Positions 13,562-50,004 of a stretch of DNA of 52,017 bases are shown piece by piece. This DNA is from Rozella allomycis CSF55. Taxonomy: Eukaryota. The stretch spans positions 1 to 52,017 of the forward strand of contig KE561021.1 in assembly GCA_000442015.1 (NCBI GenBank), given 5' to 3'. Position 1 is the first letter of the stretch; each line of letters starts with the position of its first letter. The translations under genes and the position numbers were made by a program. The notes below the pieces were generated by a model that was given only the letters and a program-made list of their open reading frames with translations, searched no databases and had not been told where the DNA came from.

Positions 13562-13610
13562 CACGTGTTTCCTAAACACGTGTATATGCCACATGCCAAT
13601 GCTAAGCCTC
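13562..13610 (+). promoter_or_regulatory. Paired CACGTG E-boxes (inverted repeat) plus GCCAC/AAGCCTC upstream of ATG 13616
   Basis: cacgtgttt-cct-aaacacgtg, tgccacatg and aagcctc. Confidence 0.5.
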
Positions 13611-13615
13611 ACAAA

Positions 13616-14447
13616 ATGAAATTCGGTTGCCTTCTTGCGTTTACTGCACTTGTTTTCGGTTCCAAGTACAAGCCAGTGGACACTCTGTTCAGTGCTGTCG
13701 AGCCAACTTTCGGTAATCCCGTATTTTACCGTGAAACAAGACAAACTATCTGAGCAATCTGTTTGGCACGGATGGAGAGAAAAGACTCTCGCTTTCGAAA
13801 AAGATTTTGATAAGCTGCATTTGAATAATCTCGAGGTTAAGGACATAGAAAGTCTTCAAACCTATTTCGAGTCCATCAGGACCCTATTCGATAAGAAGCT
13901 CGTTCCTGCAGTTGAAAATCACATCAACTCTATACTAGTTCCAACTTTAGGAAAATGTAAATAGTATTGCTTTTTTGGATTAGTTATCATGGTCTTGCTT
14001 GACGAATACGAAATGGACTTCAAAGTAACTCCTTTAACACAGCAAGAATATGACCGAATTTGCCTCTTGCTCTCCAAAAATCTCAAGAAAATCATAAATC
14101 TAACATCGCATCTTTATTTCGGCGCATCAGGCGTTGAAAGGCTGGCACACAAAGTTTCAATCGAATATGCCCAAAAGCATCTTCAAGTGCGCAGGAGCAT
14201 TCCAGTTTATATGAAATTGATGAAGAATGCAAGATTGAAGCGCCTTGGCTCCCAATGGCAACACGTCAGGGACTTTGAAAGCGCACTTGGAGAATTTAAA
14301 AACGCAATGGCCGCCTCCACGAGCCTATTTTCCAAGATTAATAGAATGAAAACAATGCCACACCATAATGTCAAAAGCATGGTTGACTTTCTTCAAAGTG
14401 TCAGGCAATCACTGGTCACTTTTCAAATGTTTATTTACTCGCTGTAA
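13616..14447 (+). CDS. Secreted helical family member 1 (single domain)
   Basis: Signal peptide MKFGCLLAFTALVFG. Two phase-1 introns (~13713-13740 and 13957-13983). Motifs WHGW, LVPAVENHI and C-terminal MVDFLQSVRQSLVTFQMF. Confidence 0.8.
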
Positions 14448-14569
14448 ATAAAATGACTATATAGAATAAATAGAATAAATAGAGTTAATATTAAATTTAT
14501 GCCCGATTTTTTTCGAAAATTAACAAAATTAATGGCATGTGTCGAGCTAATCCACAAGCCACCGGAAAA

Positions 14570-15546
14570 ATGAAATTACCAGGCTTCTTGAACGCTTTAT
14601 CTCTCCTGTTCTATACCTCCAAAATAGAGCAAGATGTGCGCCCGACTGAGCAAATCCAAGCCTTTCCGCCGACAAGTCACGAAATGTATCAGCCAAACGA
14701 CCAAATCTGGCTGGAGCCGCAAACATTTCAAGTCTACCGTAACTTGCTCTAATAATTCGTCAAATAGAAAACTTTGAGCAAGAATCGTTTGTAAATTTGT
14801 GGAAATCTGCGTTTTACGGGTTTGAAGAGTATTTGAAGCAAGGTGCTATTGGTTTTCCGGATCTTGCGCCTGACTTTGGGGATTTAGCTGCTGAATTTCG
14901 CGAGTATAGAGAGCTTGTTGGAACGATGAAAAAGCTGGTTGTTGAAGAGTCGGTGGATGTACTTGATAGACTTGATGGAAGTAAGGGGATTTTGATTGAT
15001 GGAGTAGCTATTGAAATCTTGCAACATCATCGCAATGAAAAGCTTCCGATGGGGCAAGCGTATTTTGAGGGTGAGCATTGGATAGCGAATAGATACATGG
15101 CAGTGATGGAGTTTGCTGCCGGAGGATTGAGAGGCATGGCTGAGAATAGTGTATTTCCTCAACTGTCAAAGTCTTTGAAGCAGCAAGCAATGTTGATTGT
15201 TAGAATAAAGTATCGTTTAGATGCATCAAAGGTAAAACTAATTAACATTGCTAATGTAAGGACAATAATGCTGGGTAAAAAAATAAAATTTTGTTTAGGT
15301 AGAAAAAGTGAGATGATTAATAATGTTATAGAAACTTTGAAACAAGTGGAAGAGATTCATAACATTGCGTATAAAGCATATGAAGAGACGATTGAAACAT
15401 TGAGCGTGCTGGCGGGAGATGAAAAGTTTGATTCAGCTGTTGACTTGTATAGCGTAGAGAAGATTGAATCTGCAATTGATATGCTTGCTGGTTTGAGAAG
15501 AGTTGTCGATACTTTTACCAACTTTGTCATTGCAATTACTGAATAA
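14570..15546 (+). CDS. Secreted helical family member 2 (single domain)
   Basis: MKLPGFLNALSLLF (weaker signal peptide). Intron 14739-14767 and a probable in-frame 27-nt phase-1 intron at 14981-15007. Motifs LWKSAF and C-terminal IDMLAGLRRVVDTFTNF. Confidence 0.75.
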
Positions 15547-20976: not shown

Positions 20977-22625
20977 ATGAGATTCCTAGCAATCCTATTT
21001 TTTATATGTCTTGTTGCGTCTGGCCCTTTAAACCTAAAAGGTTCCCATCATGATAATACTTTTAGATATCTTGAAAAGAACATCTTTTTATTGGATACAA
21101 CAAAATTTTGTAAGCACCTTTTGAGGTTTCAAAGTAGATGAACTTATGAGTAAACCGAACTGGAGAAACCTGAAATATGGGTTATACATTATGAATTCTA
21201 GACTTAAAAGTTTGGGAGTTCCTCGTGCACATCAGGAATTTTTTGATTTACTGGTTCCCTACGTTCAATGTTTCATGATCATGTGGGAAAAGGAATTGGT
21301 TCCTGCGGTCAATAATCATATTATTGGAAAAATGCAATATTGGCGTTTAAGTACTTTCTTTTTGTTGAATTCATTCAGATTTAGAATCAATGCAAGACGC
21401 CGAGGAATTAGAACGTCAAAATATATTCAAGGAAACAATCAAAAACATGACGATGGAAATTTCACCAGTGTTAGAAAGTCTTGACGAGTTTTTGATCGGC
21501 TTGGATAATATCAAGGATGTTTTAACCAAATGGAAGACTGAAGATGATTTAACGATCAGAGATCATGAAAATTTCATTCAAACCTCTAGTGCTGAAATAT
21601 TATTTCCCATAATTAAAAATGATATAAAAAAGGCTGAATATCATCGTGAAATACTTGATCGATATGTGAATATTTCAGAGTCCCTTATCAGCATTATTGA
21701 TAGTGCCTATATGACTCTTGAGAATCTTCCAAATCACTACGATCACTTCCTTTATGAAAATGAGTCTGAAAGGCATAATCAAATGGCCTTTTTAGAGCGA
21801 ATGATTAATACACTGGCAAATTTTCAGCATTTTGTACATTTTTTTAATGAACCGATGCTTAAAAAGACTGGTCTCAAAGATTTCCCTTCTTTTGGTAATA
21901 CTCACACTTAATCATAATTAGATTCGCTTTTGAATATGAGACATAAGGGATCATGGAAAAATTCTTTTGAGAATCTAGATAAAATTTCAAGAATTATAGA
22001 TTCTTCAGTTGGAAACACCTTCTTTCATACATTCTGTGAGTATTTGGAAAGATCATCGATTTCTATACTCGATGCCACTACATCTGGTAATTTGCATTAC
22101 TTTTCATGATAATTAGTATTGAAACAAGTACAGCCAGGGATGGTTATTGATTTGGAAGTTGTTGAGAAAATGGTATCCAAAACCGTTGAAAATTTGCATA
22201 AAGTGTCCAATCACATGAAATCAGGTTACGATCATACAGGCAAAATCCTGAATGATGCGTGTGAAACAATAGAGAAAATCGTGGCTGAAAAAACCGAGGC
22301 TAAGCCCGCCTTTTTTAAGAAACTTGCTTGTTATAGGGAGATATGCAATATTAGGAAACTCAAGATGGGAGAAAAAAGTTTATATTTTAAGAAACAAGAG
22401 TTGGATAATTTCATGACTCTTTCCACATGTCACCAACAATTTCCAGTGGCCCTTATTAGGGAACAAGTTCAGTATTTCCAAACTTCGATAGAGATGGCTA
22501 TTCAAAAATCAAAAACATTTCAATGGAAAAATCCAAAGCAAATGTTTAAGCTCCAAGAAGTCGTTGATTATGTAGTTAGCGCAGAACAAATTGCAAAAGC
22601 TTTGAAAAACCTAGTCACTGAATAA
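20977..22625 (+). CDS. Secreted helical family member 3 (two tandem domains)
   Basis: Signal peptide MRFLAILFFICLVASGP and four phase-1 mini-introns. Domain 1 has ELVPAVNNHI..WRL and MAFLERMINTLANFQHF. Domain 2 runs from SWKNSFENL to VVSAEQIAKALKNL. Confidence 0.8.
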
Positions 22626-22653
22626 ACTATTTAAAAAATATTTAATGATTTTA

Positions 22654-25302
22654 TTATAAAGTATTTAGTTTATTTTGAATGTTTGTTCTGATGGTAGAAT
22701 TAGTGGTGAGTTGAAAGAGGGATTCAAGAAGGTCTCTATTTTTGTGTTTGAATGCTAAATCAACAGAGTCTGATATGTATCCGGGATCATTAATGCAAAT
22801 TTTTAATATATTTTTTGCAAAGTGTGGAGTACGCAGTTTTGAGGAATAATGAAAGGCGAGATCGTAACGTTTGGCCCCCATGAGATCATTTACAGCACCC
22901 TAATCGAAGCATGGAATAATAATTACATGTTGAATGAATAAATTCTTAGATTTTGATTGAAGTAGAATTTCAAGTTCATCAAACTTTTGAAATTTTATAA
23001 AGTAGCTAACTTTAATCCTTTGAAACCTAAATAATACGAAAGAATTGAATTTACCTTTTATCATCAACGTTAAAATCATTCTTTAAACGATTAGCTCTTG
23101 AATGAAGACCCATTTCAAACAACTTGACTAATGTGTCGTGTAATGAAAGACCTACAATGGAGGCATGGTTGAAATCAGCATCGATCTGATTTTGAAATAA
23201 TAATAATTTAATAAAATTGTTTATAATCTTTGTTTGAAATGAAATCGACTTGTCTTGGCGAATTATGGAAAGGGCGGACTTTAATTTTGCTATTCTTTCT
23301 TTAACTTCGGCACAATTATAAGATTCTTCTATTAATAACATTGCGCTATTCCATCTTTGATCGTCTTGATAGTAATAATCCTTTAGCAAGTCATAATCCG
23401 TCTCTTTGTAAAAGTTCTCAAGTAATCTTCCAGCAAGTGGCAAGGAGTTAATGATATTTAAAAAATTTGATAGAGAATTGTTAATTTTTGCGTGGAATAT
23501 CACCAAATATATAAGATCTGCGTCTAGACTATTCAATGCTTTTTCAAGGGCTAATTTATCTTTATTCATTGATAAAAGTAATGGTATTTGTTCACAGAGA
23601 TTGCTTTCGTGATCAAGAAGCAAAACTGCCAAATTTACCTTCCCTTTGCTAAATGCGATTTTAGCGATTTCAGAGTATGAAATTCCAGAAAGCGGAGTTT
23701 GACTTAATTTGGAAACAATTGTATTATAAACTTGATGATCCTCGTCATTACAATTTATTTTCTGACAAGCCCAATCCATTACAATTTTATCGACTGGATG
23801 TTTTATGAATTGAGAAATTTTGATAGCCATCAAATGAAGATTTCTTTCAATTAATCTTTCAATGATGTTTCCAAACCCACAACTATCGTACTGAGTAAAA
23901 GTCATAAACATTCCAACATCTTCGTTTCTTAAATTGTGTAAAATTCTTATAACTTGACAAGCTTTTACAAACTTTGAATGATTGTATGTTTCTAAATATG
24001 ATTTTCCAAAGGAAGCAGACTTTAGAAGCTTTGCTTGTGAGTCAACGTCCATGTCATGGAGAGCTGCTTCAATGCATTCATCAACTGCTTCTGTCAAATT
24101 TGGAAGTATCGTTCTAATTATTTCATCTGTTTTGCCTAACTGTTTTTCAAAGTTTTCATACGCATCACAAAGCAAAGCGCTCGGCTTAGTTGAACCTGGC
24201 TTTAATACATTGATAATAGAATCTGGAATTTTCTTTATCATATGACAGGATAAAGAATCAATTAATACTATCGAATCTAATTGATGCATTAAAAATGACT
24301 TTTCATCTAACGAAAATCATATTATGAATCAAATGAAATGTTTACTTGATAAAATTGCCAGTTGGGCCAATCAGATAAAAATAATCGTCCCAGGAAATAA
24401 CAACTGCATCAGAGCCACACCTTTATATTCTAAAGTATTTTTTAACATACCACATCATCTGATTAGGAAAATTATCGTATTCAACTTCAACTGACATTAC
24501 TTCATTAAACGACATATCATACACAATAAGCATCTTTTTCATATCCAATGCAGCTATAAGGTTATTATCAGATGACACGCAAAGAAAGCCAAAACTTTTA
24601 TTCGAAATAGTTATGTTCCCTTTATCGGTTAATCCTAATCTAATCATTCTCTCTTGGCATGCTATTAACACATCTGGAACATGGTTCTCTTCAATTAAAC
24701 ACCACGAATGCGGGTATTCAAATAGATCAGTATTGCAATATACGGTTGGGATCCGGCTATTGAACTCCATTAATATAAACTTGTAATCTCTGGTCATTGC
24801 AACCAACCCATATTTATAGAATTTGCACTCTAATATTCCTGCTTCTTTTGCCTCTTTGCCAAGTGAGAATATGTCATGATTATTTCTCAAATCAATCATG
24901 TGCACAAATCCGGATTCAATTACCACCACAAGAACATCCAATAAAGTCCAGTTCATTGACACAATTTTTGAATGATCATTCCACTTTGAAAAAAAACTTG
25001 AAAGCAATACCTGAACTTGATGTAATAGCCTTCCACTCATGTTATAGATTATGATGTCCGTCTTTAAGGATTTATTTTTGATGCCTAAATGGTTCTTTTC
25101 ATTCCTAATAACGGCTTATTAATTAAATTGTACGCGATTACCGATAGGACCACCATTTTTTGCAACAGAGAGATGAACATTTTGCAAACTGTCAATATTC
25201 CAATCCATGTGATATAAAAATGTCTTTTAAATTAATTGAATAAAATTTTAAGCGTACTTTGTGGTAATATTGATCATCCAAGACCTTCCAATCAAAAAGC
25301 AT
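22654..25302 (-). CDS. VPS16: Vacuolar protein sorting 16 (HOPS/CORVET core), multi-exon
   Basis: MLFDWKVLDDQYYHK, GGPI, AVDECIEAA..QAKLLKSASFGK, WACQKI, GISYSEIAKIA, EQIPLLLSM, DADLIYLV and DYYYQDD. Confidence 0.95.
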
Positions 25303-25630
25303 GATTTTTGAGAAATATAGATTTCAAAATTTCTGATTGGAATCATTGAAGAAACATCAGGATTCTTTGAAAAACGACATCAAAAAGGACCACAATAAAT
25401 CGGTTGCGAACAATCAGGCGTTATAAAGTATAAAGTACTTTCAATCTCAATTTTAAATAGGNCGATAGCGAAGAAAACATTATAGAGAAAATCCACTGTT
25501 GGCAAAATATTCAGAACTAATTATTTATAAGACAAACCTAAAGAAAAAAGATAAGTTTGAAAGAGATTATTAATTTTAGATGTTGAATTTTGAAATATTT
25601 TGGAGGAAGTGGCCTTAATCTTAACCTTGT

Positions 25631-25652
25631 CACATGTGCTTGTGTAAGCCAC
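25631..25652 (+). promoter_or_regulatory. CACATGTG + AAGCCAC motif pair upstream of ATG 25663
   Basis: Same spacing between the two motifs as in the 20977 promoter. Confidence 0.5.
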
Positions 25653-25662
25653 TGAGAAAAAA

Positions 25663-26404
25663 ATGAAAGTAGCGATTATAATATTATTTTTCCTTTCTTT
25701 TATACTTTCTGCTCCCCTAGAGTTTTATGAAAAGCAATGGGAAACGAATTTATTTAAGTTCTGTAACACATATGCTATACCCAAAAGTAGATAATATTGC
25801 CGATGATGCAAAATGGATAAAGTGGAAAAATGACTTTAATAACATGGAAAAAGCCTTGGAAAACAATGGAATCTGTTCATTGTATGAAGATAAATGTTTA
25901 GAGTTAATGGATAATGTGGAATTGTATAGAAAAGCATTTCAGAATGTTCTTATGAAAGTCATAGAGACGCGTTTAATTAAATCGAATAGACATAAACTTT
26001 GGTATTCTAGTAAGATTTTTCTTTTTGATGAAAGAAGCGATTGAAAAATTGAATGATAAGAGTGCACCAGAAGATTTGTGCACCACTCGCGCTTCTTACA
26101 ATAAACTCATGAAAAGTATGTCAAAACCATTAAATTTACTCGCTGAAGCATTGAAGACAGTTGGTCATTTTATGACCGAGATCGAAGAATCCACATTGAA
26201 GATCCAACATGATTTGAGTGTAGCGATTGAAAATCAAGAAAAAGAATCAAATGAAGATGATAAAAGCACATTGAAAGACTTGGAAGATAAATGGAATTTG
26301 ATGATTGAATATCAATTGCAGATTTCGGATTACATCGAATTAATTCATAGCGCCGAATTTATTTTAAGAGATGTTGCACGTCGCCAAGATTATGAAGAAA
26401 ATAA
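25663..26404 (+). CDS. Secreted helical family member 4, 5' part (split by scaffold joins)
   Basis: Signal peptide MKVAIIILFFLSFILSAP, two phase-1 introns and KWIKWKNDF. Ends at N26405 in ELIHSAEFILRDVARRQDYEEN, which recurs after N28608. Confidence 0.75.
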
Positions 26405-26405
26405 N

Positions 26406-28458
26406 GAGTCAATCCAGTGGTAACGATCAAATTAAACAACGCAATATTATCCTCCTTGAGACTAAGGATTTCATTCTTAAATATATACCAGTTCAAGTAA
26501 TATTTTCTTAAATTATATGATCGAGAGCAACGACATTGGCCAGCTAGTAATCGGCTCATTGCGTTTAAGGTTGTATTTGCGTTCTCTGGCTTTTTAGCTT
26601 CATTAAATATAATAGAAGCAGATATATCAAAAGAAAAACATTGAGATATTAAATGTTTAGTGCCAAGATAGTTTGCCAGAGGTGGATGAAGAATGGAAGG
26701 ATCTTTGTGAGCACATCTTTGCAGAGCTTCGTAATTCTCAGAGGAAAAAATATATAAAAATACTACTCCATTCTCAACATAGTAACAACCTGATAGCATT
26801 CTTCTTGATAACTCTACATTTCTAGTTTGCACCACGAGGCGCTCTAAACCTTCCAGGATCTTCTTGTCCTTTAGTGAAATGAAAAAATCTAATTCACGGA
26901 GACTTGGGTTTATTTGGTTTTCAATCATGAAATCGATTGCCAAGGCGTAATATTTTTGCTCCCAAAGAATATCTAAAATAGCGGTTAAATCGATTTGAGG
27001 GTTATAATTATAGCTATTTCTGGAAATCCCGATAGTGTATTCATTAAACTTTTTCCAATCTTCAACACTGGGAAATTTTGACACAAAAATTGAACTTTTC
27101 CATTTCAGAAAATTATGAATTGAAACGATGACATTCAAAACACCCTGATCAAACTTCATCTCGGTTGGAATATTAATCGCCTTTTTATTAATAAAAAATT
27201 TAATTGAATTTTTTCTCTCAAGTGAAAACTCAAAGTGTTTTGCAAGGGTCAACGCAAAGTCATACTTTTCGTCCCTCAATGCCAACTCAAGTTCATATTT
27301 GGCACTTTGGTAAACTAATGGTTCGTATTTATGGTTGTCTGTAGAATCAAAAACTTCTCTTATTGCTTTGATCCAATTCATCCCTTGATTCACTGGAAAC
27401 CTCTTAATGGCTTTTAAAACATCTTTCTTTCCCAGATAATGAAACGATCGATCGCAAAGAAAATTTAAAAGTTCAGAATCTTTCTCTTTAAATGCATTTT
27501 CAAGTAACAGTTTTAAACAAATAGATCCACATTGTACAATCTGAGATAAGATCTTGGGTTCTCCAAGTTTAACAACAGGAATAGCCTCTTTTCTCTTGAT
27601 AAACAATTCTTTCAAAGCCAAATGCATATTTTGGTGTGTCGCTAGAACATCGAACCAGTAAACAACTCTAGATTTGTCGACTGAAGAAAACACTCCAGAG
27701 CTTGCCAAACGAGCAAAGAAATCTGTATGATTTATTTTACAATCAGCAGCGAGATCCCATTTGTTCATTATTTTCACCACCAATTCAAATATATTCTTCT
27801 TCAAGGCTTCCATTAAAAATTCAACATCTTTTAAAGGAGTTCCAAATGGTTTAAAGTTGTTTATCATCTCTATTTTATAGTCATTGTATCCATTAACATC
27901 AAATATCATCGCTTCAACTACCAATCTTTTTCCTGTCGTTAATGCGTAATTGTATACATTCGTAACGTAGTATTTTGCATCTCTCAGTAAATACTTTAGC
28001 ACATATATCAATTGCTTTTCTATAGCGTCAATCAACACCTCTTCAAATCCTAGCCCTTTCGGGCTAATTACATGTTGGAAAAAATTGTCGCACATGACTT
28101 TGCTAGTTTCCAAATCGCCAAATTCATAGTCTACGAAAGGATCTGTTGGAATAATCTTTCTTGACTTGGAAAGTGCTTCGTTGCAAATGTCCAGGGGATC
28201 TACATTGTACTTGTTGAAATAATCATAATATTCAGTTTCATGACCCGATTTTCCATATTTTATGATAGACTCAAAAAGCCTAATAATATCAGCACTACTT
28301 TTTCTTTTGAAAGCATATTCCACCATCTCACGGTCAGATAACAATGTTTCTAGCGTTGAATACAGAAGCTTGCTGTCAGGCGTATATTGAGTATTAGTGC
28401 AAAGAATAATATTGAGTGTAAAAACACAAAACAGCACCAGGCGTGTTACGATCCACAT
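26406..28458 (-). CDS. Intronless secreted protein of unknown function (>680 aa, 3' end cut by N)
   Basis: Long ORF with hydrophobic N-terminus MWIVTRLVLFCVFTLNIILC. No recognised domain. The apparent stop lies across an N join. Confidence 0.75.
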
Positions 28459-28544
28459 TTACCAGGGATATAACATGTGCAGAAAGAAAATTGTTCGATG
28501 GATTATGTTAATCTTTGAGTAACATTTGTAAATAAGTATACTAT

Positions 28545-28607
28545 GGGCTCATAGCTCAGTTGGTAGAGCGCACGCTTTGCATGTGTGAGGTCCCGTGTTC
28601 AAACCCC
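28545..28607 (+). tRNA. tRNA-Ala(TGC), 3' end truncated by N (possibly a pseudogene)
   Basis: GGGCTCA-TA-GCTC AGTTGGTA GAGC-G-CACGC TTTGCAT GTGTG-AGGTC-CCGTG TTCAAAC CC.. The T-stem appears to contain a mismatch. Confidence 0.75.
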
Positions 28608-28608
28608 N

Positions 28609-29660
28609 GTTGAATTAATTCAAAGTGCTGAATTTATTTTAAGAGATGTTGCACGTCGCCAAGATTATGAAGAAAATAATATTGATTTTATTAACGAAAT
28701 ATACATCGCTATGACGCGGATTATAAAGTTTTTCGAATTTTGGAATTCCCCAATTAATGAAACTGAATCCAATGAAATCATCAAAAATGACATTTTCATT
28801 AAAAATTATGTATATTTTAGTAATAGATTTTTCTGTTTACAATAAAGGTCAAATTCAACATGCTAAGAATGTTAATAACTGGACACGAAGATTCGATAAT
28901 GTTGAAGATTCATTGGCACAAATACAAATAGAAAATATCGATTATAGAGAATTATTTCAAGCTTATAGAAACTTCAGGGGCGTTCAGATTAATAATTTTA
29001 GAAAATCTTTCAATGATGAATCTGATAAAATCTCAAACACAATCTCTGCAGGTAACTGGATATACTTTATAACATGTAGCCCTCTATGATTATATTAATT
29101 TAAAAGAAAATAATATGGTTGATTATTTCAACATTGATTTCTCCAACCTAACAATCTCTCTTAATGAAATCTGTAAAAAATTGGAGAGTTTGCTTGATTC
29201 TTTAGCAACCATGATGACTTACAATAAGGTTGCTTATGGAAAAGATTTGAAAAATAGACTTGAAGAACTAAACGAAGCCAACATCAAAGCTAAAATGGAA
29301 TATAAAGACGATGGCAAAAAGAAGTCAAAGTTTAAAAATATTTCCAAGTTTATCGACAAATTAAAAAACAAGAAGAAAAAACCAATCGATATTACAAAGT
29401 CAATAGATGAACAAATTGTTCAAATTGAAATAAATGATTTGACTGCCAAAATAGAATCCACTAACAAAGGCTTTTATCATATAGAACAATTTCTCAAAGA
29501 CTTAATGGGTTTGTTAAATGATGTGGTCTTGAGCTTTAAGGATGCTTTACAGCATGGTAACAACATTGCCAATCTTAACGCTGACGATAAAGCCCTTCTT
29601 CTCGCCTGTGTTAAGAAGAATGTCTTGGTTCTGAAATACTTTATAAACTCAATAAACTAA
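28609..29660 (+). CDS. Secreted helical family member 4, 3' part (end of domain 1 plus domain 2)
   Basis: Overlaps the end of the 25663 gene in sequence. Two more phase-1 introns, NNWTRRFDNV, a Lys-rich segment and C-terminal LLACVKKNVLVLKYFINSIN. Confidence 0.75.
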
Positions 29661-29734
29661 ATTAGATATTATTTTTATAGTCACATTTTATAGGCGCAAG
29701 CAAAAATTCTACCCTGGTAGATCCGCGAAAAAAA

Positions 29735-30654
29735 ATGAATTGGAAAATTACCACCCTCTTATTCACACTGGCGGTTTCTTTGGTGACTGGTACGGTATAC
29801 ACCCCGAATGAGGATCTTTTCTTGACTCAGAGTAACTCAACTTAAATTTGTACAACTAGTCGATCTCACTGACGAAGGCAGAATAATGCGCTGGAAAATG
29901 GATTTTGATGTCATCAATCAGTTCTTTGAACCACATCCAAGCCCTGACTTTCCAACTTCTGATCAGGAAAATGTTGTTCACCATTTTTTCGGTGACCTTC
30001 TAGATTATATCCATTCAAATTCACGAGCCCTAGAAACGATTGATCACAGTATTTTTATTCATGTATTTATATGTAGCGTTGTTGGACATCAAAACTTTTC
30101 TAGAAGCCAATAGCGATATCGACATGGAACTGAGGCAAAAATGTCGGTTTTCTTCAGCAATTATCATTTCTTTCTTGCACGGATTTGATTTGGAATTCGA
30201 TAAGATTCTTAATGATTTCCAGGATTTGCAAGATTCTATTATAGAAGCCCGAAACATAGAAGGTGCTGAATACGTTCACCTGCTAGAAAAGATTTGCGCC
30301 AAAAGAAATAACAAAGCTTCCTGCATGAAAAAATTGAAAGGCTTTATTAACTCTCTTCTTAATAAACGCAAAGTAATACATGAAAACACTGTACTATACT
30401 TGTCAGTGAATGAAATGAAAGAGATAAAGGATATTGAAAATAATAGAAAAAATTTAGATCGCTTTGAAAATGTTTGTAAAGAATTCATACAAGTGATTGA
30501 AATGATCGGCTTTAGACTCAATGAATCTACTACTTATTGGACTATTAATATAACACTAGATACATTAAATGACCTGCATGTCTATATGGATTTTCTGGCG
30601 AGTGTTAGAAAAATGGTGAACACTCTTGAGGGCTTTATTAATAGAATAAATTAA
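29735..30654 (+). CDS. Secreted helical family member 5 (single domain)
   Basis: Signal peptide MNWKITTLLFTLAVSLVTG. Introns at 29832-29859 and 30049-30076 (28 nt, phase 1). Motifs MRWKMDF and C-terminal MDFLASVRKMVNTLEGFINRIN. Confidence 0.8.
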
Positions 30655-30899
30655 ACTTTAACATTTCTTTATCAAACACGTATTAGATTCATAGTTTTTA
30701 TCGAGATGAATTGAGTTTTTTATAACACACTCCTTTTAAGGGATGGCGAGTTTTACATGTTCTTGCCACTTAAGAAATCCAACATCACCCATAGTAGTTG
30801 TATTTATAGCATAAACTTAATTTATGCTATAATGAAGGACCGTGGGAATGCATTGCCAAAACAATCTTATCCCATTCGTCTGACCAAGCCACACAAAAA

Positions 30900-32604
30900 A
30901 TGTGGATCCCTGCAATTTGTGTTTTCATATGTTTTGTTGTTTCAAGCCCCGTGCAAGAGACCCAAAAGGAAATTTTTGATTTCGATAACTTTCTTGGACA
31001 GTGCAACAGTATTTCTGCAAGTAACTAGCTGTCTTTTTATGCATCAGATCTTGCCGACCATCACAAGTGGAACCAGTGGAGATCAAATCTTTGTCCTCTA
31101 CCAATGGTTATAAGTTCAACCATAAAGCTTCCACTTAGAGATGCTGATATTGTCTCGGAACACGTTGCCGGACTTATCAACATGATCGAACAGGACTTGG
31201 TGCCAGTTGTAGATGAGAACATCACTAAAAACTTACAGGAATGGAGACTTGGTAACTAATTTTCAAGTCGATAAATAGCTGCTGCAAAGTTGAGAAGCGA
31301 AAGGGACGCTGTCAAGCAGACTCAGATTTTCGCAGAGACAATTAAAAGTTTGAAAGAACACCTGTCTCCAGTTCTTGAAAAGCTCGAATATATCTCCAAC
31401 CAAAGACAAGAGACTAACAAAGTCATGGAGAGATTTGAAAGAGACATGCACGCCAAGTACATTGATGATGCTAAAAAGGCAACCGCTCCAAAGACCCGTT
31501 TTGACATTGAAAGTTTGTTTCTTCAGCCTACTCTTGACGAAAGTATGATTTATTCAATGTGTTGATAAGATGATGAACGTAGAGTAAGCAAATTGCTGAG
31601 CTATACAGAAACTGATGTCGAAGATAATGAAAACCACTTTTTAAGTGAAATTCACAAAGAAGATGATGAAAACCTATTTGTAAGTGAAAGACACAAAAAG
31701 AATACACTCTTTTTGCGTGATTTAAATGAAAGAACTTTTATACTCTACGAGATTACTGATGAGGCATCTGTTATTTTTGCTGAATTGTGTAAAACCGTAA
31801 TTGAATTCGATAACAATCAACAACGTGTTGCTTTCCTTGATAGGGTTCATCAATTGACTGCCGATGTTCAAAAGTTTGCGTATTTTGCAAGTCAGCCGCA
31901 ACTCATGCCGGGAAGAGATGATTTGTATTTGCGAGGTACAGAGTTTGGTAAAATTTATAATTTTTGCGACATAGAAAAGCTTGAGGATCCACTAGTCATG
32001 GAAGAATGGCGTTTAAAAGTGAAGAAGATTGAAAGATTTGTGAAAAGACTCGACGATGAATCTTCTATTATAGACTTCAACTCTTTCACTGCTTATAAGG
32101 AGAACATGAGAATTATTATCAGGGAGCTTTATGAAGATTTTGAATTCGGTAATTAAATTAACCATTCTTGTAATTCCAGATAAAGTATCTATCAACAAAT
32201 TAAAATTAAATCTTCGTGTCTTTAGAAAAATAAACTTTAGAACAAAGAGTTGCAAAATAGCGGACCATTTAAAAGACATTGCTTCAACCACCTTTAATAT
32301 GAAATGGAATTCACGGCTAAAAGATCGTTATTTGGAAATGCGATACAATGAAAGTAAATTTGGAAAGTTAAAAAGAAAATTGTTGCGTGGAACTCAAAAA
32401 GAAGAAGAATCTTTGGATGACATTAAACGATACATCAAAGAGTATGCAGATCTTATTATTACTGTTTTCAATAAGGCTGGAAATCAGCATGGTAAACCTG
32501 TTGGAGATGAGATTGAGGTGAATTTCTTGCAAAGACATCTTGATCAATTGAAAAGTGCTGAAAGAATTACAAAGATTTTCAAAGACCTGTTATTTCCGCA
32601 ATAA
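30900..32604 (+). CDS. Secreted helical family member 6 (two tandem domains)
   Basis: Signal peptide MWIPAICVFICFVVSSP. Motifs KWNQWR, DLVPVVDENI..WRL, LSPVLEKL and VAFLDRVHQLTADVQKF. Ends LKSAERITKIFKDL. Several phase-1 introns. Closest relative is the 20977 gene. Confidence 0.8.
31620..31697 (+). repeat. 39-bp coding tandem duplication
   Basis: EDNENHFLSEIHK / EDDENLFVSERHK. Confidence 0.85.
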
Positions 32605-32720: not shown

Positions 32721-33805
32721 ATGTTTTTCATACTTTTCCAGTTTCTCCTTTTACAAATCATTTGTGCACCAAAAAGAGAGCGTAGTATTAACAATGGAAT
32801 CATATCTTCAATATTTCCAGGCTATGGTAAGATTTCCAGTGTATTGTCACAGAAAACGTATTAACGCCACAAAGAATGTTGGTTCAAAAAGAATCTCTGA
32901 AACAAGTGCAGAGTGATCTAAACTTTAAGTTGATTAGAGGACGTGTTTCTAACATAGTGATGGTTGCACGTGTGATGCATATGGAGATTAGACTGAAGCA
33001 ACTGTTAGAAAAGATAGATGGGTTATGGAGTATGGGAAGCGACAAGCTGACTATCAGTGTGAATAATCTTGAGAATAGTAAGTGTTTAATCGGTGTGATA
33101 TTAGTTGTGGACGATATGAAAAATCATTACTATTATGGAGAGATATCTGCAAAAAATATGCAGAATACTTTTAACGAGCTTTTTTTAATGATGAGGGAGC
33201 ATTTGAATGATTTGTTTAATGAGATTGTAGTGATTAGGGCGAATGCGAGAAAATTGAAGACGAATATGGTTGATGTTGTAGAGTATTTGGAGAAGAGTGT
33301 GTCGAGGAATATGGAGAAGAAGAGGATTGTGGTTAAAAAGGAAAAGAGGAGGAGTGTTGTAGTGAATAAGGAGAAAAAGAGTTTGAAGAGTCGAATGACT
33401 GTTATGAGTTTAATGAATAAAGTTTTTAGGAAAAAGAAGAGAGAGAACAACAGAGAATTTTTGGAAGAAAATAACGAGTTGACAATAGATGAAAAACGAG
33501 AGTTGGAATCGGAAGAAAGACGAGAGTTGGAATCGGATGAAAATCGAGAAGAAATTGACGGTTCCAATAAGAGCAAAAATGAGACTATAGACAATGAAGT
33601 CTTAAAAGAAATAGAAGCAATTAAAACAGGAATTGAAACTTTAAAGGAATTTGTGTGGTATCTTGGCTATATAATTAAAGTGTTAATCAATGTGATAGAT
33701 GATTGGATATATTTTGTCGATGTAGAAAGAGGTGCATGGGCGATGGACGTGATGGCTAGCATGAAATTTATGTTACAAAATATATTCACTTCAATTCAAC
33801 TATAA
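32721..33805 (+). CDS. Secreted helical family member 7 (tandem paralog of the 34245 gene)
   Basis: Signal peptide MFFILFQFLLLQIICAP. A 26-nt intron plus an in-frame 27-nt intron, both phase 1. C-terminal MDVMASMKFMLQNIFTSIQL. Confidence 0.8.
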
Positions 33806-34244: not shown

Positions 34245-35256
34245 ATGTTTTTCATACTTTTCGCTTTCCTCCTTTTGCAAATCCTGTGTACTCCCAACAG
34301 CGAGCATACCATAAACAACGCTTTAATATCATCAATATTTACAAACTATGGTAAGATATCTGGTGTGAATTTACAGAAAATGTGTTATCGCCACAGCGAA
34401 TGTTGGTTCAAAAAGAGTCTCTGAAAAATTTGCAGAGTGATCTGAATTTCAAGTCGATTAGAGGCCATGTGTCGAGTATAGTGATGGTATCGCGTGTTGT
34501 GCAAACGGAGATTGGATTGAAGCAGCTGTTGGATAAGATGGATGCGATGTGGAGTATAGGAAGTTCCAAGCTGACGATAAGTGTGCTTAATCTTGAGAAT
34601 AGTAAATGGTTGATGAGTGTGAGACACTAGTTGCGGATGCTATGAAAAATCATTATTATTATGGAGATGTTTCTGTCAAGGAAGTGGATGACACGTTTAT
34701 AGAGTTTTTTGGGATGACGAGGGACCATTTGAATGATCTGGCGAGTGAGATTGTAGAGGTTAGGACGAGTGCGAGTAGATTGAAGAAGAATATGGTTAGT
34801 GTTGTGGAGGATTTGGAGAAGAGTTTGTCTGGGAATAAGGAGAAGAGTAGTTTTAAGGGGCTTGTGGATAAAATGAGTGCAATGAGGTTGATGGATAGAT
34901 GTTTTAAAAAGAAGCATGAGAGTAGAGATGTGGCTAGAGAGTTTATGGAAAATAATGGTGGGCTGACAATGCGCGAATATAACGAGTTGGCTTTAGATGA
35001 AAATAGTGGTTCTAAAAACAAGAAGAATAAGAGTATAAATAATGAAGGGGTTTTGAAAGAAATAGAAGCGATGAAAACAGGGATTCAAACTATAAATGAA
35101 TTTGCCGAGTATCTTGGTTATATAGTTAGAGTGTTGACTAATGTGATTGATGACTGGATAGATTTTTTTAATCTAGAGGATGTTGAGTTGATGATTGATG
35201 TGATGGCTAGTATGAAATTTATGCTACAAAAGATATTCACATCACTTCAACTATAA
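34245..35256 (+). CDS. Secreted helical family member 8 (tandem paralog of the 32721 gene)
   Basis: Signal peptide MFFILFAFLLLQILCTP, the same two intron positions, and near-colinear protein (MKNHYYYG, VIDDWI, DVMASMKFMLQ). Confidence 0.82.
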
Positions 35257-35546: not shown

Positions 35547-38500
35547 TTAATTGTTTATTTTGTTTTCAATTTGCCTAAACCTGTTCATCAACGGCTGATT
35601 ATTAATAGAAGACAGAGCAACAATAAACTTTGACAGATCAACAGCTGAATTTTCTTGGAGATGATTTTCGAGCAAGAATAGAATTTCCTGTAATAAAAAG
35701 AGCAAACCATTTGGCGTGTTCCATGGATGTGATTTGTTAACAAAGAGAGAATTTAGTTCGTTGAATAGAATTTGGAATGGAATTGGAATTTTCAAGAGAC
35801 AATTAACGCACCAGCCGGATTGGTTTAGAGAGAATGAAAATTTGAGAATGAGATTTAAGAGATCGGATAGAGGGAATACTATTGAAGGATAGAATTGTTT
35901 ACCCAAAGAAACCAACTTTGATTCTAGTGATATTAGAGAATTAGTAGTAATAGAAGTATTAGAAGTATTAGAAGGGTTATAACCATTAGAACCATTACTA
36001 TTAGACATATTACAACTAGAAATGATGTCGTTGTACATTGAAATGATTAAAGACTTGTCAGAATAGTTTGAACATTTAAGAATAGAAAAACAAGAGAAAT
36101 AGAGATTTAAAGGTTTAGCATAATAATTGAATAGATGAGATAAATCTAATAGTTTGAATTTTAGAATTTCATTTGGGACTAGATTCTGTTGATCCATTTC
36201 ATTTAATAGATTTAACTGAATCAAAGCAACATCCAATTGATCTTGAATCAAATCAATTGAAATAATTTTTATTAAAGAACAACTTTTAGCATTAGCTAAT
36301 GAAAGTGTTAAATATTCAATTCTCTTTTCTATTGGAATTTGAATTCTAAATTAAAACATTAAATAGAAATTACTCTTCGTTTGTTCCAATTGAATAGCAA
36401 GTTAAAGAAGCTTTATCAAATATTTCATTGTGAACGTAATACTTCCACAACAAATCATAATCTTCAGCTATTTTGGGATTGTTCATTCTATTCTTTAATA
36501 CTTCTTCAACAAACAAACTTTTCATTTGAATAATCAAATTGAATTTCTTTACAAAAGCAAAATAGTCAATCAATCTCTCATGAAACAATTTATCATTTGA
36601 TTTCATAGCAATCTGCAAGCAAGTCATCAGTAGAGAGTCAAGTGATTCACTAGTTAAACTATGCAGTTGACCCTCTACACTACTCAAAGCACTACTTTCA
36701 CCTCTAACCCCATTATCACCTCTAACTCCTTTGTCAACTTTGTCACCTTTATCACATTCAAAATCACCTTCAAAGAGGGAAATACAAATTTCATAAATTT
36801 CATTCCTCTCAATTTGATTTAATTCAACATTCTCCAAACTCAACAAGATCAATTTAATCGCATATTGATGACATTTCAATCTCTTGTATTCTTCACAAAT
36901 TAATTTCAATCTATTAATAGAAATAGACTTAGCCACTTTAACAAACAATTTAAATGAATCTATAATAGAATTCTTATTTAAAGATTCAGAAGCCTTGTAC
37001 ATTAAATAATCATCTGTTGTGAAATACAATGAACAATTCTCTCTCAATGTTTCTAATAATGATTCAATGTTTATTTCTTGTTTAATATGTTTATTTATTA
37101 AATTTCCAATCAATTCTTTCATCAAATCTATTTTTCCAATTAAATCTAAAATCAAAATCTTTTCATTAAAATTCTTCATCAATTCTTTCAAATTAAAATC
37201 TAATAAAATTATTATCAAATTTATTATTTCTATAAAATAATTTACAAAACTTTTAATCTCTTTCATCTTTATTAATTCTCTCTTTATTGCTTCTTCAATC
37301 TCTGCATCTATAAATTGAATTGATTTCATATTCTCCATTTCATATCTCTTCACTATCTCAGACTCTTCAATAAAGTTTTTAATCTGAATCATATTCTGTT
37401 TAATCACTTGCAACAATACAAAATTATCTTCTCTTTCATTCAACAAACTCAAATCTTTCAATGTTTTATCATTCAATGGTTTTATTATTCTCCCAACCAA
37501 CAAATTCAATCCATTAAACAATCCTGAATAAACTATAGAAGTATTATAAGGATTTAAAGGGTTTGAAATAGTATTAAAAGAAGGGTTAAACGTTGTAGAA
37601 GGGTTGAAAGTAGACGTAGACGGGTTAAACGTTGTAGAAGTATTTGTTGCACTAGAAGTCTCATTCTTTACAAGGGTTGGAATGCCAGAATATTTATACA
37701 AACAATACAAACTCGCTTGCTTTATATTACTCTCTAATTGACTCAAAATCATTTCTTGATTAAATGACTGGAATGGACTAGACGATAATATCAAACTAGT
37801 ACACGCTATTTCATCCCTCTCGAAACTCTCATAAAATATTTTTAATTGTTCTGTCTCTTTCCCATTACTTTCCCTCAATATCTTTATCATCAAATCAACT
37901 GGTCTATTCTTTTCTATTATTTGAATCCCTTTCAATGTGATGTGAATTTATTTACCTAATTCAAAACTTTTACTTTTTAATTACCTGAATTGGACATTAC
38001 TAAAAATCTTCTCCTTTTGCTTCTAAATTGATTCAAAAATTCATTATTTCTATTCTCCTCCCTCTTCTCTTTTCTATTCTTCAACTCACAAACACTCCAC
38101 GTCTTTCCCTGCAAATTATTAATCATAGACTTTTCAATTCCCACACTCCCATTCTCCTTCACTACACCTCCCTTGCCTCTACTCAACAAATTGCTATTCG
38201 GGCAAACCATCCACATCAAATCTTCACTCTCAATTCCACTCCCACTAGCTGCTAGAAAACACCCCTCTGAATAGAAACTCAAATGATACGAATTCCTCAA
38301 CACCGGCGATACCATCAAATTATTCATCCTAAACTCATTGCCTATCCTCACATGAATCATCTTCACTTGCATATTATTATCAACCCCAAAATACATCCTT
38401 ATCCCATTGCTCAAACAAACAAAAAAATTAACCCTCTCACTCTCACTTCTCTTAATCCCATGCACCCCGATCACCTGCAAATTCTCTCCTTCAAACACAC

Positions 38501-39447
38501 TCCCATTCCTTCCTACCATCATCTTCCCCTGGTAAACCATAAAACTAAAATCTATCGTCTCCAAATGCTTAAAATCTCTTCCATCCAATCCCATATAATA
38601 CACACTCACATTAGACTTTTCACTCAACGTATACACCATATTCCTCGTATCATCAACAACCACACTCATCAACGCATCTATACTCCCAAACGGATTCAAT
38701 ATCGACGCATACTGGCTAATAATCCCTCTACTCTTCACCACCTTCGAACACCGTCTCTTAAACCATCCCTCTTTACTCTATCTACACAAACCAACCCCCT
38801 TACCTGGTAATTCAACTCGTACAAATTTCCATCACTCCCACTCATAAACACCCTCCCCTCCTCACTCGCTCCAATACTCAATATCCTCACATCATCCGTA
38901 GGCACACTCAGCCCAGTATTATAAAACACCACATCCCCACCACTCACTGCTATCCCCAACACACTCACCTCGACTGCTGTAGCAACAACCATTATATACT
39001 CAATCTGCTTCACAAACACACCCTTCTTTGGTCGCGCCAGCCCTACACATCCAATAATCTGGTCAAACTCATCATAACTCACAAACGACCTATATCACCC
39101 ACACAAATACATTACCCATCCTCATAGTTCCAGATAAACAACCTATTATCTATAGTCAACCACGCTCGATTCAACTCTTCAAACAACCCCATAAAACACT
39201 TGCTCTCAATCGTATCATACAACTGGAATAAACTATCAGGCAACGGTATAAATTTTTTCAACGTATAAATTCCCTGCTCATTCACATACTCGCTACTACT
39301 AGGACCTGTCACACTTGGCATCGTATTTTTACTCGAAAATAGATCCCATAAATCAGGATACTCAATCTCCCGCTGCCGGCAGTAGCTCAGAATATTGTTC
39401 ACCGTTTGCTCATTCGTTGCTGAAATGTTTCTTGCTTCTCCTAACAT
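35547..39447 (-). CDS. NUP170: Nucleoporin Nup170/Nup155, multi-exon
   Basis: MGLFEELNRAWLTIDNRLFIWNYEDG, VGLARPKKGVF, GRVFMSGSDGNLYELNYQ, DDTRNMVYTLS, DLLWKYY and LFNYYAKP. Confidence 0.93.
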
Positions 39448-39555
39448 TCCCAAATTTACAAACCAGGGTCTACAAAACAAGATAGTTCATGAAACAGTTA
39501 CATAAGAAATATAATGATAAAATTGATTTCTACATAATTTTATAGTATATCAAGT

Positions 39556-42500
39556 TTATTTTAATCCCTTAATCACAAAAGCAACAGGCTTATCCTTGAT
39601 CTCAGCAGCCGGCAAATAAGCACCCAAACACGACACAACCAACGAAAACAATATCAAAACTACAAACAACGGCACATTCATATAAAACGCAAACGGCATT
39701 TCAGTAAACAAATTAAACTGCAGCGTCAATGCAATCGCAGTCACACATCCAATAACAAAGCCCTGGATAATACATGAAATAACTATAGTCACAGCCTCAT
39801 AAATATACAACTTCATCACCTGCCATCCATACAATCAGCCAAATTGATTATCATTACTTGTAAACCAATCGCTCGCAAAACACCAAATTCCCACACATTC
39901 TCACGAATATTCGCTGTAAACGACAGCCAAAGCACAAAAAAACAAAATATCATGCCGATAAACGAGACTAGTATGGAAAAGGATTAAATTTTACCAACGT
40001 AAAAGAACATCATTATTAAATCACTGGCAGTCTTTGTTGCTGCTATATCGGCTTTCAGGTTTACCACATTGAATGCATCGCTGTTGACTATCCCGTTAAT
40101 GTCATTCACAAGCCCTTCAATTTGGAAATCTGACACAGATTGCTTGACCTTTATAAACAAACGCGAATATGATATTTTTGTAGGCTTTTCGGGCATCATC
40201 AATCGGTCAGAGTACTCTAAAATCTTTTTATACATGTCCAGAGAAATAAATAACGGTGTTCTGTTTCTCACCAAACGTGAAATTGAGGGAAACCCAGATA
40301 ACTTTTTCAACAAGATTATTGGCAACGAGGGGATCTCATGGGTTATGTATTGACGATTCATGTCGCGAAAATAAAATATTAGGCGAACCATTGAATCTAC
40401 ACCAAAGTAATAGTTTTCATATAATGAATTTGAAATGGCTATTGGAACACCTGATAAATATGCCTTTGATGTGTTAGAAGGTAATCTGTTTTCATCATAA
40501 GGCGCGTATTGGCCAGAATATACGAGAGATGGCGGCTCTGTAAGTTCCAAGCTGAGATTGGTGTTGAGTGATGGCAAGAAATTTATCTTTCCAGAGCCAG
40601 TTGTTTGGAAATTTAGTTCAGGGCGTACCTTTTCAACCATGTAATACGAATTGAAACTTACATCCAAATAGTTTTCTTCCAAGGCCATGACTGAAACGGT
40701 CACTTCATTAAAGTATAGATTATCAATGATGGTAAGATCATCAAGGTTCTTTAAAGAGTTTAATGGGACTGTGGCAAAACTATAGTCTTCAACAATACAC
40801 CTTGAAGAATTGTTATATTTGACTAGAACAGTATTTAAATAGGATCTCAAAGCAGTATCAGGCAGGGGATTATTCATGGTCCCTCCAGTAACAACAATAT
40901 CTGCCCCAGCAAACCAAGATTGGTTATCTGATAGGGAATTCGCTTGCATAGTAAACATGGTAGCAGCAAATAAGACATATGCCAAACAGATGACAAACAT
41001 AAGAGATGTTTTTCTATTCCTAGGCCGATGGCTCTGTAAATTTTTCAAGACAACATCCTTGAGGATTCTATCGGATCCCCAATATAAAATAACTGAGAGT
41101 ATGCTTCTCTCTAAAAATGGTTGTATTGATGAAACCATTAAAATTTGGCCAATGACAAGACACAATAGAATTATGGTAAGAACTCTGAAAAACATGGACA
41201 GTAGGTTAAAAATAAATGACAGAGGTACAACATAGTATACCAGAATACCTATAACCACAAGAAACAAAGCGAATAATGTTTGTATTATAGAAACCCCAAT
41301 GTCTTGTAGGCGTTTAATGGATACAGTTGTGTCAAATACTACATTATGATATATGTCGAGAGCATCTCTCAGCGTTTTTGTTAAAGCACGCCTGACTGGA
41401 ATAATTGAGCCAACAAAAGGGAGAATTATACCCAAAGAAACACCAAGTATTAATGCGCCAAAAGTCAAGTATGGTCTTATCTCTGTAAATGTCATGTTGG
41501 ATAAAACATAACTTAGTGGTACATAAATTACATAGCAAATGTATATTCCTGTCAGAATGGCCGGCAGGGAAAAATAGAAAGATTGAATGGTTAAAAGACG
41601 AAGAAGATTATTTTTGTTCAGACCAAGAGTCCGTAACATTCCAAACTCAAAGGTCTTTTCTTGAATGTCGGCCAGCAATAGAGAATATATTAGTATTACT
41701 GCTAGCATTGACAAAACCACTACAACTGCGAATAGCACCTATTTAAATTATGCAAGGATCATACTTCATCTAAAAGAATGCTAATGAAGCTAGAGGTTTG
41801 GAGCGCGGTGTTTAAAGGAAGTGAAAATGTGGCATCAAAATCATCCCCAAGGCTTCCCACTATAGAGTTTGTTAATAAAATAAAGTCCTTTTTTCTCTCA
41901 GTAGTAGATTTCATATATGCAGATAGCCTGTCTTTGAATATAACGCATACAGACATTGCAAATTGCTACGAATTTGTTTATAAGCAGCCTTTTACGTCGA
42001 TTTCTAAGTTCTTAATTTCTGTATATAAGTTATTTAATATAGGTTCTAACAAGTTATTGCTTGAAAGAGATGATATAAACGAAATCATTATTTTCTTAAG
42101 AACAATTTTCTCAAACACAGCATAATTGCCTAGAGCAGTAGGAACCTTACTGTATGTTCCATCTAATGAACCGACCACTATCACAATTTTGTACGTTATT
42201 TACCAGTGAATGTGGAATTTACAATTAGTAGCCAAGGGTTTTCATCAATAGTTTGCAACAAATTTTGAATCAAAACCTTTGAATTAACAGTAACATTGAA
42301 TCTAGCTTAACTATACAATGAAATGGATAATTACATTGCGTGGAATTATCGATACCGATAATTCTTGTCAAGTTGGGAAACAAGCGTGTCGCATCAATCA
42401 AGTCACTAGCATCAATTGTTCGAGTGATATTTTGTTCAGGGATTATTGAATTCAAAAAGGAATCAAGATTATTTCTGGAATTGTTGGTAGAATTTGATAA

Positions 42501-49859: not shown

Positions 49860-50004
49860 TTTATCAACTTAATGATAACATGAATTATGCAATATTCTTA
49901 TAAACCAAATTTGTAAGTTGTAACTATTTTCATTTTTTGACATTTTTGATTGTCGCATAATTTTCTATTTTTGCTTCAATCCACGCCACCCTTGAAGCCA
50001 CCCG

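Follow-up and report, generated by a model that had tools for sequence, protein, structure and literature searches.

Duplicated genes are well known to inherit the intron positions of their parents, internal domain duplications and tandem paralogue arrays keep ancestral intron positions, and the phase-1 bias of genes for secreted proteins is equally familiar. Here we describe a gene cluster of this kind in Rozella allomycis CSF55, found in a stretch of 52,017 nucleotides (nt; positions 1 to 52,017 of contig KE561021.1, forward strand; hereafter the window). Its core set consists of six same-strand genes (g13616, g14570, g20977, g25663/28680, g29735 and g30900, named by position), which encode nine copies of a predicted all-helical domain of ~220-260 amino acids (aa) each; two neighbouring genes (g32721 and g34245) share the layout and promoter motifs of the core genes and are without the W motif of the core copies. 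The mechanism that we favour is an ordinary one, duplication with inherited introns plus one fusion, and it is the family itself that is new. The locus shows cleanly, on a small scale, how gene structure can outlast similarity of sequence, in an organism that is a key outgroup for microsporidia and fungi.

An excerpt of PMC1626468, summarising Tordai & Patthy and Vibranovski et al., describes phase-1 introns as over-represented close to signal-peptide cleavage sites and as forming the boundaries of extracellular modules; the statistics in that excerpt are for animals and plants, the fungal data being too few. As in the pattern set out there, the Rozella genes have a signal-peptide-like exon, a first intron in phase 1 at codon 32-56 (8/8 genes) and further phase-1 introns. 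In contrast to the modules of the excerpt, the Rozella domain does not have an intron at each end and turned up in no other protein, and its phases would be explained by descent from two ancestral introns. The Rozella units resemble tandem paralogue arrays in sharing intron places and phases, strand, adjacency and promoter motifs, whereas they differ from typical arrays in a pairwise identity of 13-31% among copies, in ultra-short introns and in three introns that are in-frame and stop-free.

Plasmodium exported-protein genes, as PMC1431722 describes them, encode the signal sequence in exon 1, and their exon 2 opens with the export motif. In Rozella likewise a conserved intron parts the predicted signal sequence from the protein body; the Plasmodium introns are, according to that paper, predominantly phase 0, whereas those of Rozella are phase 1. 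A PEXEL-like pattern was seen in 2/6 core genes.

Paired phase-1 introns around the W motif

Gene models were built from each ATG on the + strand with GT..AG introns of 20-60 nt permitted, and a splice-site weight matrix made from 26 introns was used to scan the exons for hidden introns. As an earlier sequence-only reading of this DNA had described, a phase-1 intron (intron A) stands just before the W motif; it was found 10-13 codons upstream of W[K/R/T] in all nine core domain copies, with an offset of 12 codons in seven of them. A second intron (intron B) was also phase 1 in 9/9 core copies, counting in-frame candidates, and the exon between introns A and B measured 72, 71, 72, 55, 74, 68, 63, 68 and 58 codons; the spacing of ~60-80 codons proposed by that reading was correct for most copies and slightly too long for the two at 55 and 58. 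The reading frame required 16 of these 18 core introns, and the remaining two (14981-15007 and 31948-31974), which are 27 nt long, in-frame and stop-free, were treated as putative introns. Throughout the eight genes, 23/23 predicted introns were phase 1 and 25-31 nt long; the length was divisible by three in nine of the 23, and three of those nine were stop-free.

Among the single-domain genes, all on the + strand like the rest of the cluster, g13616 (13616..14447, 258 aa) has exons 13616-13712, 13741-13956 and 13984-14447, with intron A at 13713-13740 (28 nt) and intron B at 13957-13983 (27 nt), both phase 1. For g14570 (14570..15546; 315 aa, or 306 aa with the candidate intron spliced), intron A lies at 14739-14767 (29 nt, phase 1) and candidate intron B at 14981-15007 (27 nt, phase 1, in-frame, stop-free). 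These two genes had been said to mirror the two-domain layout, which is true of g13616 and of g14570 only if the in-frame candidate counts. A third single-domain member, g29735 (29735..30654, 287 aa), lies inside the interval 20977..32604 and was absent from that account; it starts 74 nt past the stop codon of g25663, and its introns (29832-29859 and 30049-30076, 28 nt each) are both phase 1.

In the two-domain gene g20977 (20977..22625, 512 aa) the two-intron pattern occurs twice, with four introns at 21110-21134 (25 nt), 21351-21378 (28 nt), 21895-21921 (27 nt) and 22087-22116 (30 nt), all phase 1; the junction previously quoted for it, ...TTT G / GTAAT..TTAG / AT at 21895-21921, leading to DSLLNMRHKGSWKNSF, was exact. 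g30900 (30900..32604) encodes 521 aa with five introns (31021-31047, 31252-31278, 31543-31569, 31948-31974 and 32149-32179, all phase 1) or 530 aa with the four obligatory ones; 31543-31569 is an extra, fifth phase-1 intron inside domain 1, and the intron before the W of its second domain is only optional, which qualifies the claim that this gene also repeats the pattern. For g25663 the claim is right only with an assembly piece inside the gene removed. The 5' part (25663..26404) holds the signal-peptide exon, the W exon and the start of exon 3, with introns at 25763-25787 and 26010-26034 (25 nt each, both phase 1), and the 3' part (28612..29660) holds the end of exon 3, which resumes at 28680, and then domain 2, with introns at 28820-28847 and 29052-29079 (28 nt each, both phase 1); once 26405-28679 was left out, the joined protein had 538 aa and four introns. 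Both introns are therefore phase 1 in 3/3 first and 3/3 second domains, one second-domain intron (31948-31974) being an in-frame candidate.

The residue directly before intron A is aromatic in 9/11 copies, including 3/3 second domains, where it is F in every case. Elsewhere in these proteins W[K/R/T] occurs six times in 2422 residues, which puts at ~0.01 the chance that one falls within any particular stretch of four codons. Phase 1 was found for 3/10 introns of the window's other genes, and for 0/4 of the Pfam-validated ones among them, so that the excess in the cluster gave a one-sided Fisher p of ~3e-5 (hand calculation, treating introns as independent). Because the copies are related, the independent events are the two or three intron origins, and p then becomes roughly 0.03-0.1. 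Three other open reading frames (ORFs) of the window also start with a hydrophobic segment (28458 on the minus strand, 48546, and 49996-51192); none of them has an intron like the first one of the cluster genes, and the intron pattern is thus not a general habit of secreted-protein genes in the window. The pattern was confirmed in these predicted gene models, and it is slightly broader than first described.

The weight matrix flagged three 27-nt, phase-1, in-frame and stop-free candidates, at 14981-15007, 31948-31974 and 33078-33104, and it is from the sequence that we infer their splicing. The last of these lies in g32721 (32721..33805; 343 aa spliced, 352 aa with one obligatory intron), the exon plan of which is 106/225/701 nt with introns at 32827-32852 (26 nt) and at the candidate (27 nt), both phase 1. 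Its close paralogue g34245 (34245..35256, 318 aa) has phase-1 introns at 34351-34376 (26 nt) and 34602-34630 (29 nt); the latter is required by the frame and stands at the same place as the candidate of g32721, which supports that candidate. The two genes are reciprocal best non-self matches within the window (E 0.019 and 0.046). As full members of the family both were rejected on sequence, since the scores of the family hidden Markov model (HMM) were low (-2.4 bits for g32721 and 10.7 bits for the g34245 exon); by architecture, adjacency and promoter motifs they are possible remote members. A six-frame scan of the window with four family profiles revealed no further member.

Five database proteins (P0001-P0005), which are automatic gene predictions, were ~99% identical to our models over shared stretches and contained ten introns with identical junctions and two more with a variant boundary. 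P0001 (ROZALSC1DRAFT_31807) agrees on the g20977 intron 22087-22116 and shares the donor at 21895 with a later acceptor, thereby omitting 26 residues and giving an intron of ~105 nt. P0002 (ROZALSC1DRAFT_30680) uses both 3' introns of g25663 and both introns of g29735, and it joins the two genes by a predicted splice that we judged wrong. In P0003 (O9G_003465) intron A of g14570 was confirmed and the candidate B at 14981-15007 is read through, with unverified introns added at ~15228-15256 (phase 0) and ~15271-15304 (phase 2) flanking a 14-nt exon. P0004 (ROZALSC1DRAFT_30681) confirmed the second, third and fifth introns of g30900 and omits four more residues at the fourth, a 39-nt variant at ~31936-31974, and P0005 (ROZALSC1DRAFT_31676) splices 34602-34630 identically to the g34245 model. 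No database model was seen covering the candidate 33078-33104, and no database protein was found for g13616 among the matches of two profile searches. Existing gene models hence miss in-frame stop-free introns or place them inconsistently. As a separate observation, 15 of 1373 aligned residues differ between the window and P0001, P0002 and P0004, which belong to another assembly of this strain (P0003 excluded); this difference could be allelic variation or amplification error.

Origin of the two-domain genes

Sequence similarity among the copies was low. By BLAST the N-terminal halves of g20977 and g30900 matched at E 4e-11, and other pairs were marginal or gave no match. In shuffle-based Smith-Waterman comparisons the first domains together with g13616 gave Z-scores of 4.1-13.8, apart from two pairs at just 2.1 and 3.2; g13616 scored 4.1-4.8 with the first domains of g20977 and g25663 and 2.1 with that of g30900. 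Domain 2 of g25663 reached Z 5.6 with domain 2 of g30900, and g29735 bridged both types, with a Z of 5.5 against domain 1 of g20977 and of 5.8 against domain 2 of g25663.

The two halves of the same gene, on the other hand, gave Z-scores of -0.2, 1.4 and 0.3 in the three two-domain genes, and intron position outlasts this protein similarity, as the sequence-only reading had maintained, together with intron phase and short motifs. First- and second-domain profiles aligned in register in hhalign at P 0.008-0.04, against 0.42-0.67 for reversed controls, and a second-domain HMM ranked first- and single-domain exons 1, 2, 4, 5, 6 and 9 among 204 ORFs. The helix start W[K/R]xxF is shared, WKNSFENLDK of g20977 domain 2 resembling WKNDFNNMEK of g25663 domain 1; ~37 residues on from the W stands a conserved aromatic, and near the C-terminus an amphipathic helix motif was recognised by eye in 9/9 copies. 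The positional evidence of introns and motifs is the convincing part of the case for related halves.

We consider it probable that the cluster arose by tandem duplication of a three-exon gene, with one in-frame fusion of neighbours and then more duplication. In the order of events that we infer, the ancestor would have had three exons, one for the signal peptide, the W exon of ~70 codons and one for the helical body, parted by two phase-1 introns, and would have been copied in place repeatedly, promoter included. Two adjacent copies would later have been joined in frame, a small deletion taking the upstream stop codon, the spacer, the downstream promoter and the downstream signal peptide. The two-domain gene would then have multiplied into 20977, 25663 and 30900, and every copy would have kept the two inherited introns and their phase even as the proteins changed in sequence almost past recognition.

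Tandem duplication, already proposed from the letters, is borne out by the same-strand array, by its spacers of 74-439 nt and by the two-intron pattern occurring twice in the two-domain genes. Upstream of the genes, AGCCAC was found on the + strand at 14557, 25647, 30887, 32703 and 34224, 8-21 nt before the ATG in 5/8 genes, and the E-box-like CACRTGT at 13562/13577, 20943, 25631, 32681 and 34188 (+), 32-57 nt before the ATG, also in 5/8 genes; window-wide there were 18 matches to each, against 9.2 and 7.5 expected from shuffles. These shared motifs argue for promoters having been duplicated along with the genes, and they suggest that AGCCAC and CACRTGT mark a co-regulated set. A maximum-likelihood tree of the nine domain copies set the three second domains apart from the remaining copies as one group (support 73/75) and paired g20977 domain 1 with g30900 domain 1 (82/88). 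The comparison of N- and C-terminal domains called for previously was thereby made, and in it the second domains group together and the first domains fall with the single-domain genes, weakly. Of fusion or fission, between which that proposal had not chosen, fusion before the multiplication of the two-domain gene fits the tree, with support of just 73/75.

Several observations weigh against duplication with one fusion. The tree support is weak and the terminal branches are saturated at 1.2-3 changes per site, and g20977 domain 2 never rises above Z 1.9 to any copy. The hhalign probability of first versus second domains is just 1-5%, and reversed and column-shuffled controls of the HMM ranking also enrich, so that composition explains part of the rank signal. 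Intron B shifts by ~10 alignment columns between the first-domain types and the rest, and its place is therefore only approximately the same. The introns are sequence predictions, and the database models, being predicted too, disagree with ours in four places (the acceptor in P0001, the donor in P0004, the read-through and the phase 0 and phase 2 introns in P0003, and the fusion in P0002). Structure models are too uncertain for comparing the two halves: AlphaFold2 gave an all-helical fold with a mean predicted local distance difference test score (pLDDT) of 44 for the intron-free domain of g14570, and again an all-helical one, with mean pLDDT 52 and a predicted template modelling score (pTM) of 0.25, for P0004 with a 12-row family alignment.

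A different origin, which we hold to be improbable, is exon shuffling proper, in which the phase of the introns would have enabled the event, either because symmetric 1-1 exons are mobile or through read-through splicing past the downstream signal-peptide exon; in the latter case the first-intron acceptor of the downstream gene would have been joined to a phase-1 donor newly arisen where the upstream gene ends. Such a course would suit a family with a symmetric W exon, exclusively phase-1 introns, spacers down to 74 nt and an automatic model (P0002) that joins g25663 to g29735 by a predicted splice, and phase-1 introns go with signal peptides and extracellular modules in the excerpt of PMC1626468. 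However, the F that stands before the domain-2 intron in 3/3 cases corresponds to the aromatic before most first introns. Since this conserved residue precedes the intron, the repeated unit starts upstream in the exon and the fusion junction does not lie at the intron; with the junction in exon sequence, the intron phases look inherited, not enabling. The 1-1 exon, moreover, was never skipped, doubled or moved alone among the copies, and in no case had a W exon by itself been acquired, dropped or inserted into a different protein. The 1-1 exon covers just the first third of the domain, the C-terminal end of which is a stop codon or plain exon, and the domain is consequently not bounded by phase-1 introns on both sides as a class 1-1 module would be. 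Profile searches placed it in no other protein context, and the long transitional intron would be unusual where modelled introns are 25-31 nt bar one candidate of 56 or 71 nt. The suggestion that symmetric-phase exons had aided the process accordingly found no support.

To fission, in which a two-domain ancestor would have split into the single-domain genes 13616, 14570 and 29735, we give a slim chance. g13616 resembles the first domains, and g29735 resembles domain 2 of g25663 (Z 5.8) and directly follows a two-domain gene. Yet a second domain that split off would have to acquire three things, all of which g29735 has: its own promoter, an exon for a signal peptide and an intron at exactly the family place; and the tree puts g29735, weakly, with the first-domain and single-domain group outside the second-domain group. 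That the second halves are unrelated helical tails, their introns and W motif being coincidence or parallel intron gain, is hardly credible: although the within-gene Z is ~0, the hhalign probability is low and composition yields part of the rank signal, a phase-1 intron with W[K/R/T] 12 codons on (chance ~0.01), the pre-intron aromatic, a second phase-1 intron 55-68 codons on, the aromatic ~37 residues past the W and the C-terminal helix motif would all have to coincide, and the profiles align in register.

Predicted secretion, relatives and role

An N-terminal hydrophobic segment was found in 8/8 genes (11-residue hydropathy of 1.6-3.4 within the first 25 residues), and no later 19-residue segment above 1.43 occurred in any of the eight. 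By hydropathy alone the eight proteins have signal-peptide-like N-termini and are predicted to be secreted.

Searches for relatives covered representative libraries, with the rest of the Rozella genome and other eukaryote genomes lying outside them. A family profile run against 1.84 billion representatives returned four matches, all from this locus, and a W-exon profile returned three, again only proteins of the same locus. In leave-one-out profiles the left-out members scored 0-32 bits, so that absence of library matches is compatible with very distant relatives. Pfam gave no family at its cut-off for any exon translation of the eight genes or for P0001-P0005, and in the Protein Data Bank (PDB) two profiles and two proteins met matches only at chance level or to coiled coils. 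Bacterial type III secretion gatekeeper clusters were the best ESM Atlas match of P0003 (score 0.89, 144 shared features); this match was set aside, being below the level at which that tool gives more than a lead. No description of this secreted family was found in the literature covered, outside which the original genome paper lay. As far as searched, the proteins appear to form a new, orphan and unannotated family restricted to this locus, without a known family to which it would belong.

Rozella is an obligate wall-less endoparasite living inside Allomyces cells, and this way of life points to host-interface or host-directed proteins. Most likely they would be fast-evolving factors aimed at the host, which the parasite would release at its interface with the host or across it, and the cluster would supply candidates for how a wall-less endoparasite handles its host. 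Weighing against this functional reading is its basis in a hydropathy-judged signal peptide, the general biology of the organism and analogy. The analogy drawn is to microsporidia, for which PMC5423893 describes lineage-specific families of host-exposed proteins that evolve rapidly. Like those families, the Rozella proteins are predicted to bear signal peptides, lack known domains, diverge fast and are expanded, and Rozella is itself an obligate intracellular parasite allied to microsporidia; in sequence they have no relation to those families, and the parallel is an analogy only.

The WY-domain is a helical module of oomycete RXLR effectors. The Rozella proteins are comparable in being, by prediction, secreted, helical and modular, whereas they are without an RxLR motif, R.LR being found in the first 100 residues of 0/8 genes. 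The W-exon profile met the PDB chain 8jnt_A ('RxLR19781') at a non-significant E of 0.38 (domain E 1.6), the conserved W and Y of the profile pairing with W and Y of the chain; the match did not recur with three other PDB queries, and no Pfam match to a WY-domain was obtained for the cluster proteins at E up to 1. WY kinship is a lead only. We see little likelihood that the proteins are a Rozella-specific family of host-directed effectors with a helical W...Y module distantly akin to oomycete WY units, growing by whole-module doubling and carrying optionally retained introns. If they were, the three 27-nt introns at homologous places in three paralogues would yield isoforms with nine-residue insertions, a cheap variation of an exposed protein in an ultra-short-intron genome.

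Tiny introns, contig joins and other features of the window

The window is AT-rich, with a G+C of 26-42% in 2-kb windows, and modelled introns across it, those of housekeeping genes included (for example 47350-47378, 39090-39115, 38778-38803 and 36346-36373), are 25-31 nt long and start with GTAA, GTAT or GTAC; the exception is one candidate intron of 56 or 71 nt in the nucleoporin gene. In conserved genes four GTAA...AG introns of 26-29 nt restore continuous Pfam coordinates, namely 16-194 / 200-380 for Aldedh, 2-55 / 64-166 / 168-427 for Nucleoporin_N and 1-412 / 417-641 for Nucleoporin_C. Tiny introns are genuine in the Rozella allomycis genome, and its annotators should expect introns of 25-31 nt. 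The phases of the four Pfam-validated introns are 0, 2, 0 and 2, and those of six introns inferred solely by ORF joining are 0, 1, 0, 0, 1 and 1. To our knowledge, sizes of 25-31 nt are among the shortest of any introns. PMC1950532 and PMC5014332 concern introns with a length that is a multiple of three and ultra-short ciliate introns. No Rozella intron size was found in the literature, including a term search of PMC5701793, the original genome paper being outside this coverage.

The foreign block that splits g25663 spans 26405..28611, the piece proper (26406-28607) lying between single N's at 26405 and 28608. A direct repeat of 68 nt flanks it, 26337-26404 recurring at 28612-28679 with 65/68 identical. 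Within the block a minus-strand ORF runs from an ATG at 28458 to the N at 26405 without a stop (~680 codons, intronless), and a tRNA-Ala(TGC) was called at 28546-28617, its 3' end crossing the N at 28608. At 5/21 of the window's single N's the sequence on the left recurs on the right at 91-98% identity, which makes the single N's look like contig joins; uncollapsed overlaps of 35-134 nt were seen at 1499, 8007, 8806, 19021 and 51837. The simplest reading is that the 2.2-kb piece is a misplaced contig and that g25663 is continuous in the real genome. Single N's in the Rozella assembly can split genes. The uncollapsed overlaps also produce false short duplications inside ORFs, for example in 7876-8157 and 8657-9406. 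The minus-strand ORF at 26406-28458 has a signal-peptide-like start and CACATGT 15-21 nt upstream of its ATG, and it gave no Pfam match.

Elsewhere in the window, the segment 2017-4214 has a G+C of 0.42 and several ORFs on both strands, unlike its surroundings, and may be a mobile element. From 36001 to 40000, over the minus-strand nucleoporin gene, the GC skew ranges from -0.26 to -0.57 in 2-kb windows, far beyond the rest. Two tandem intronless ORFs on the + strand (48546-49859 and 49996-51192) have hydrophobic N-termini and, by eye, the catalytic-loop motifs DIKPSN and DVKPEN, and they may encode secreted or membrane kinases.

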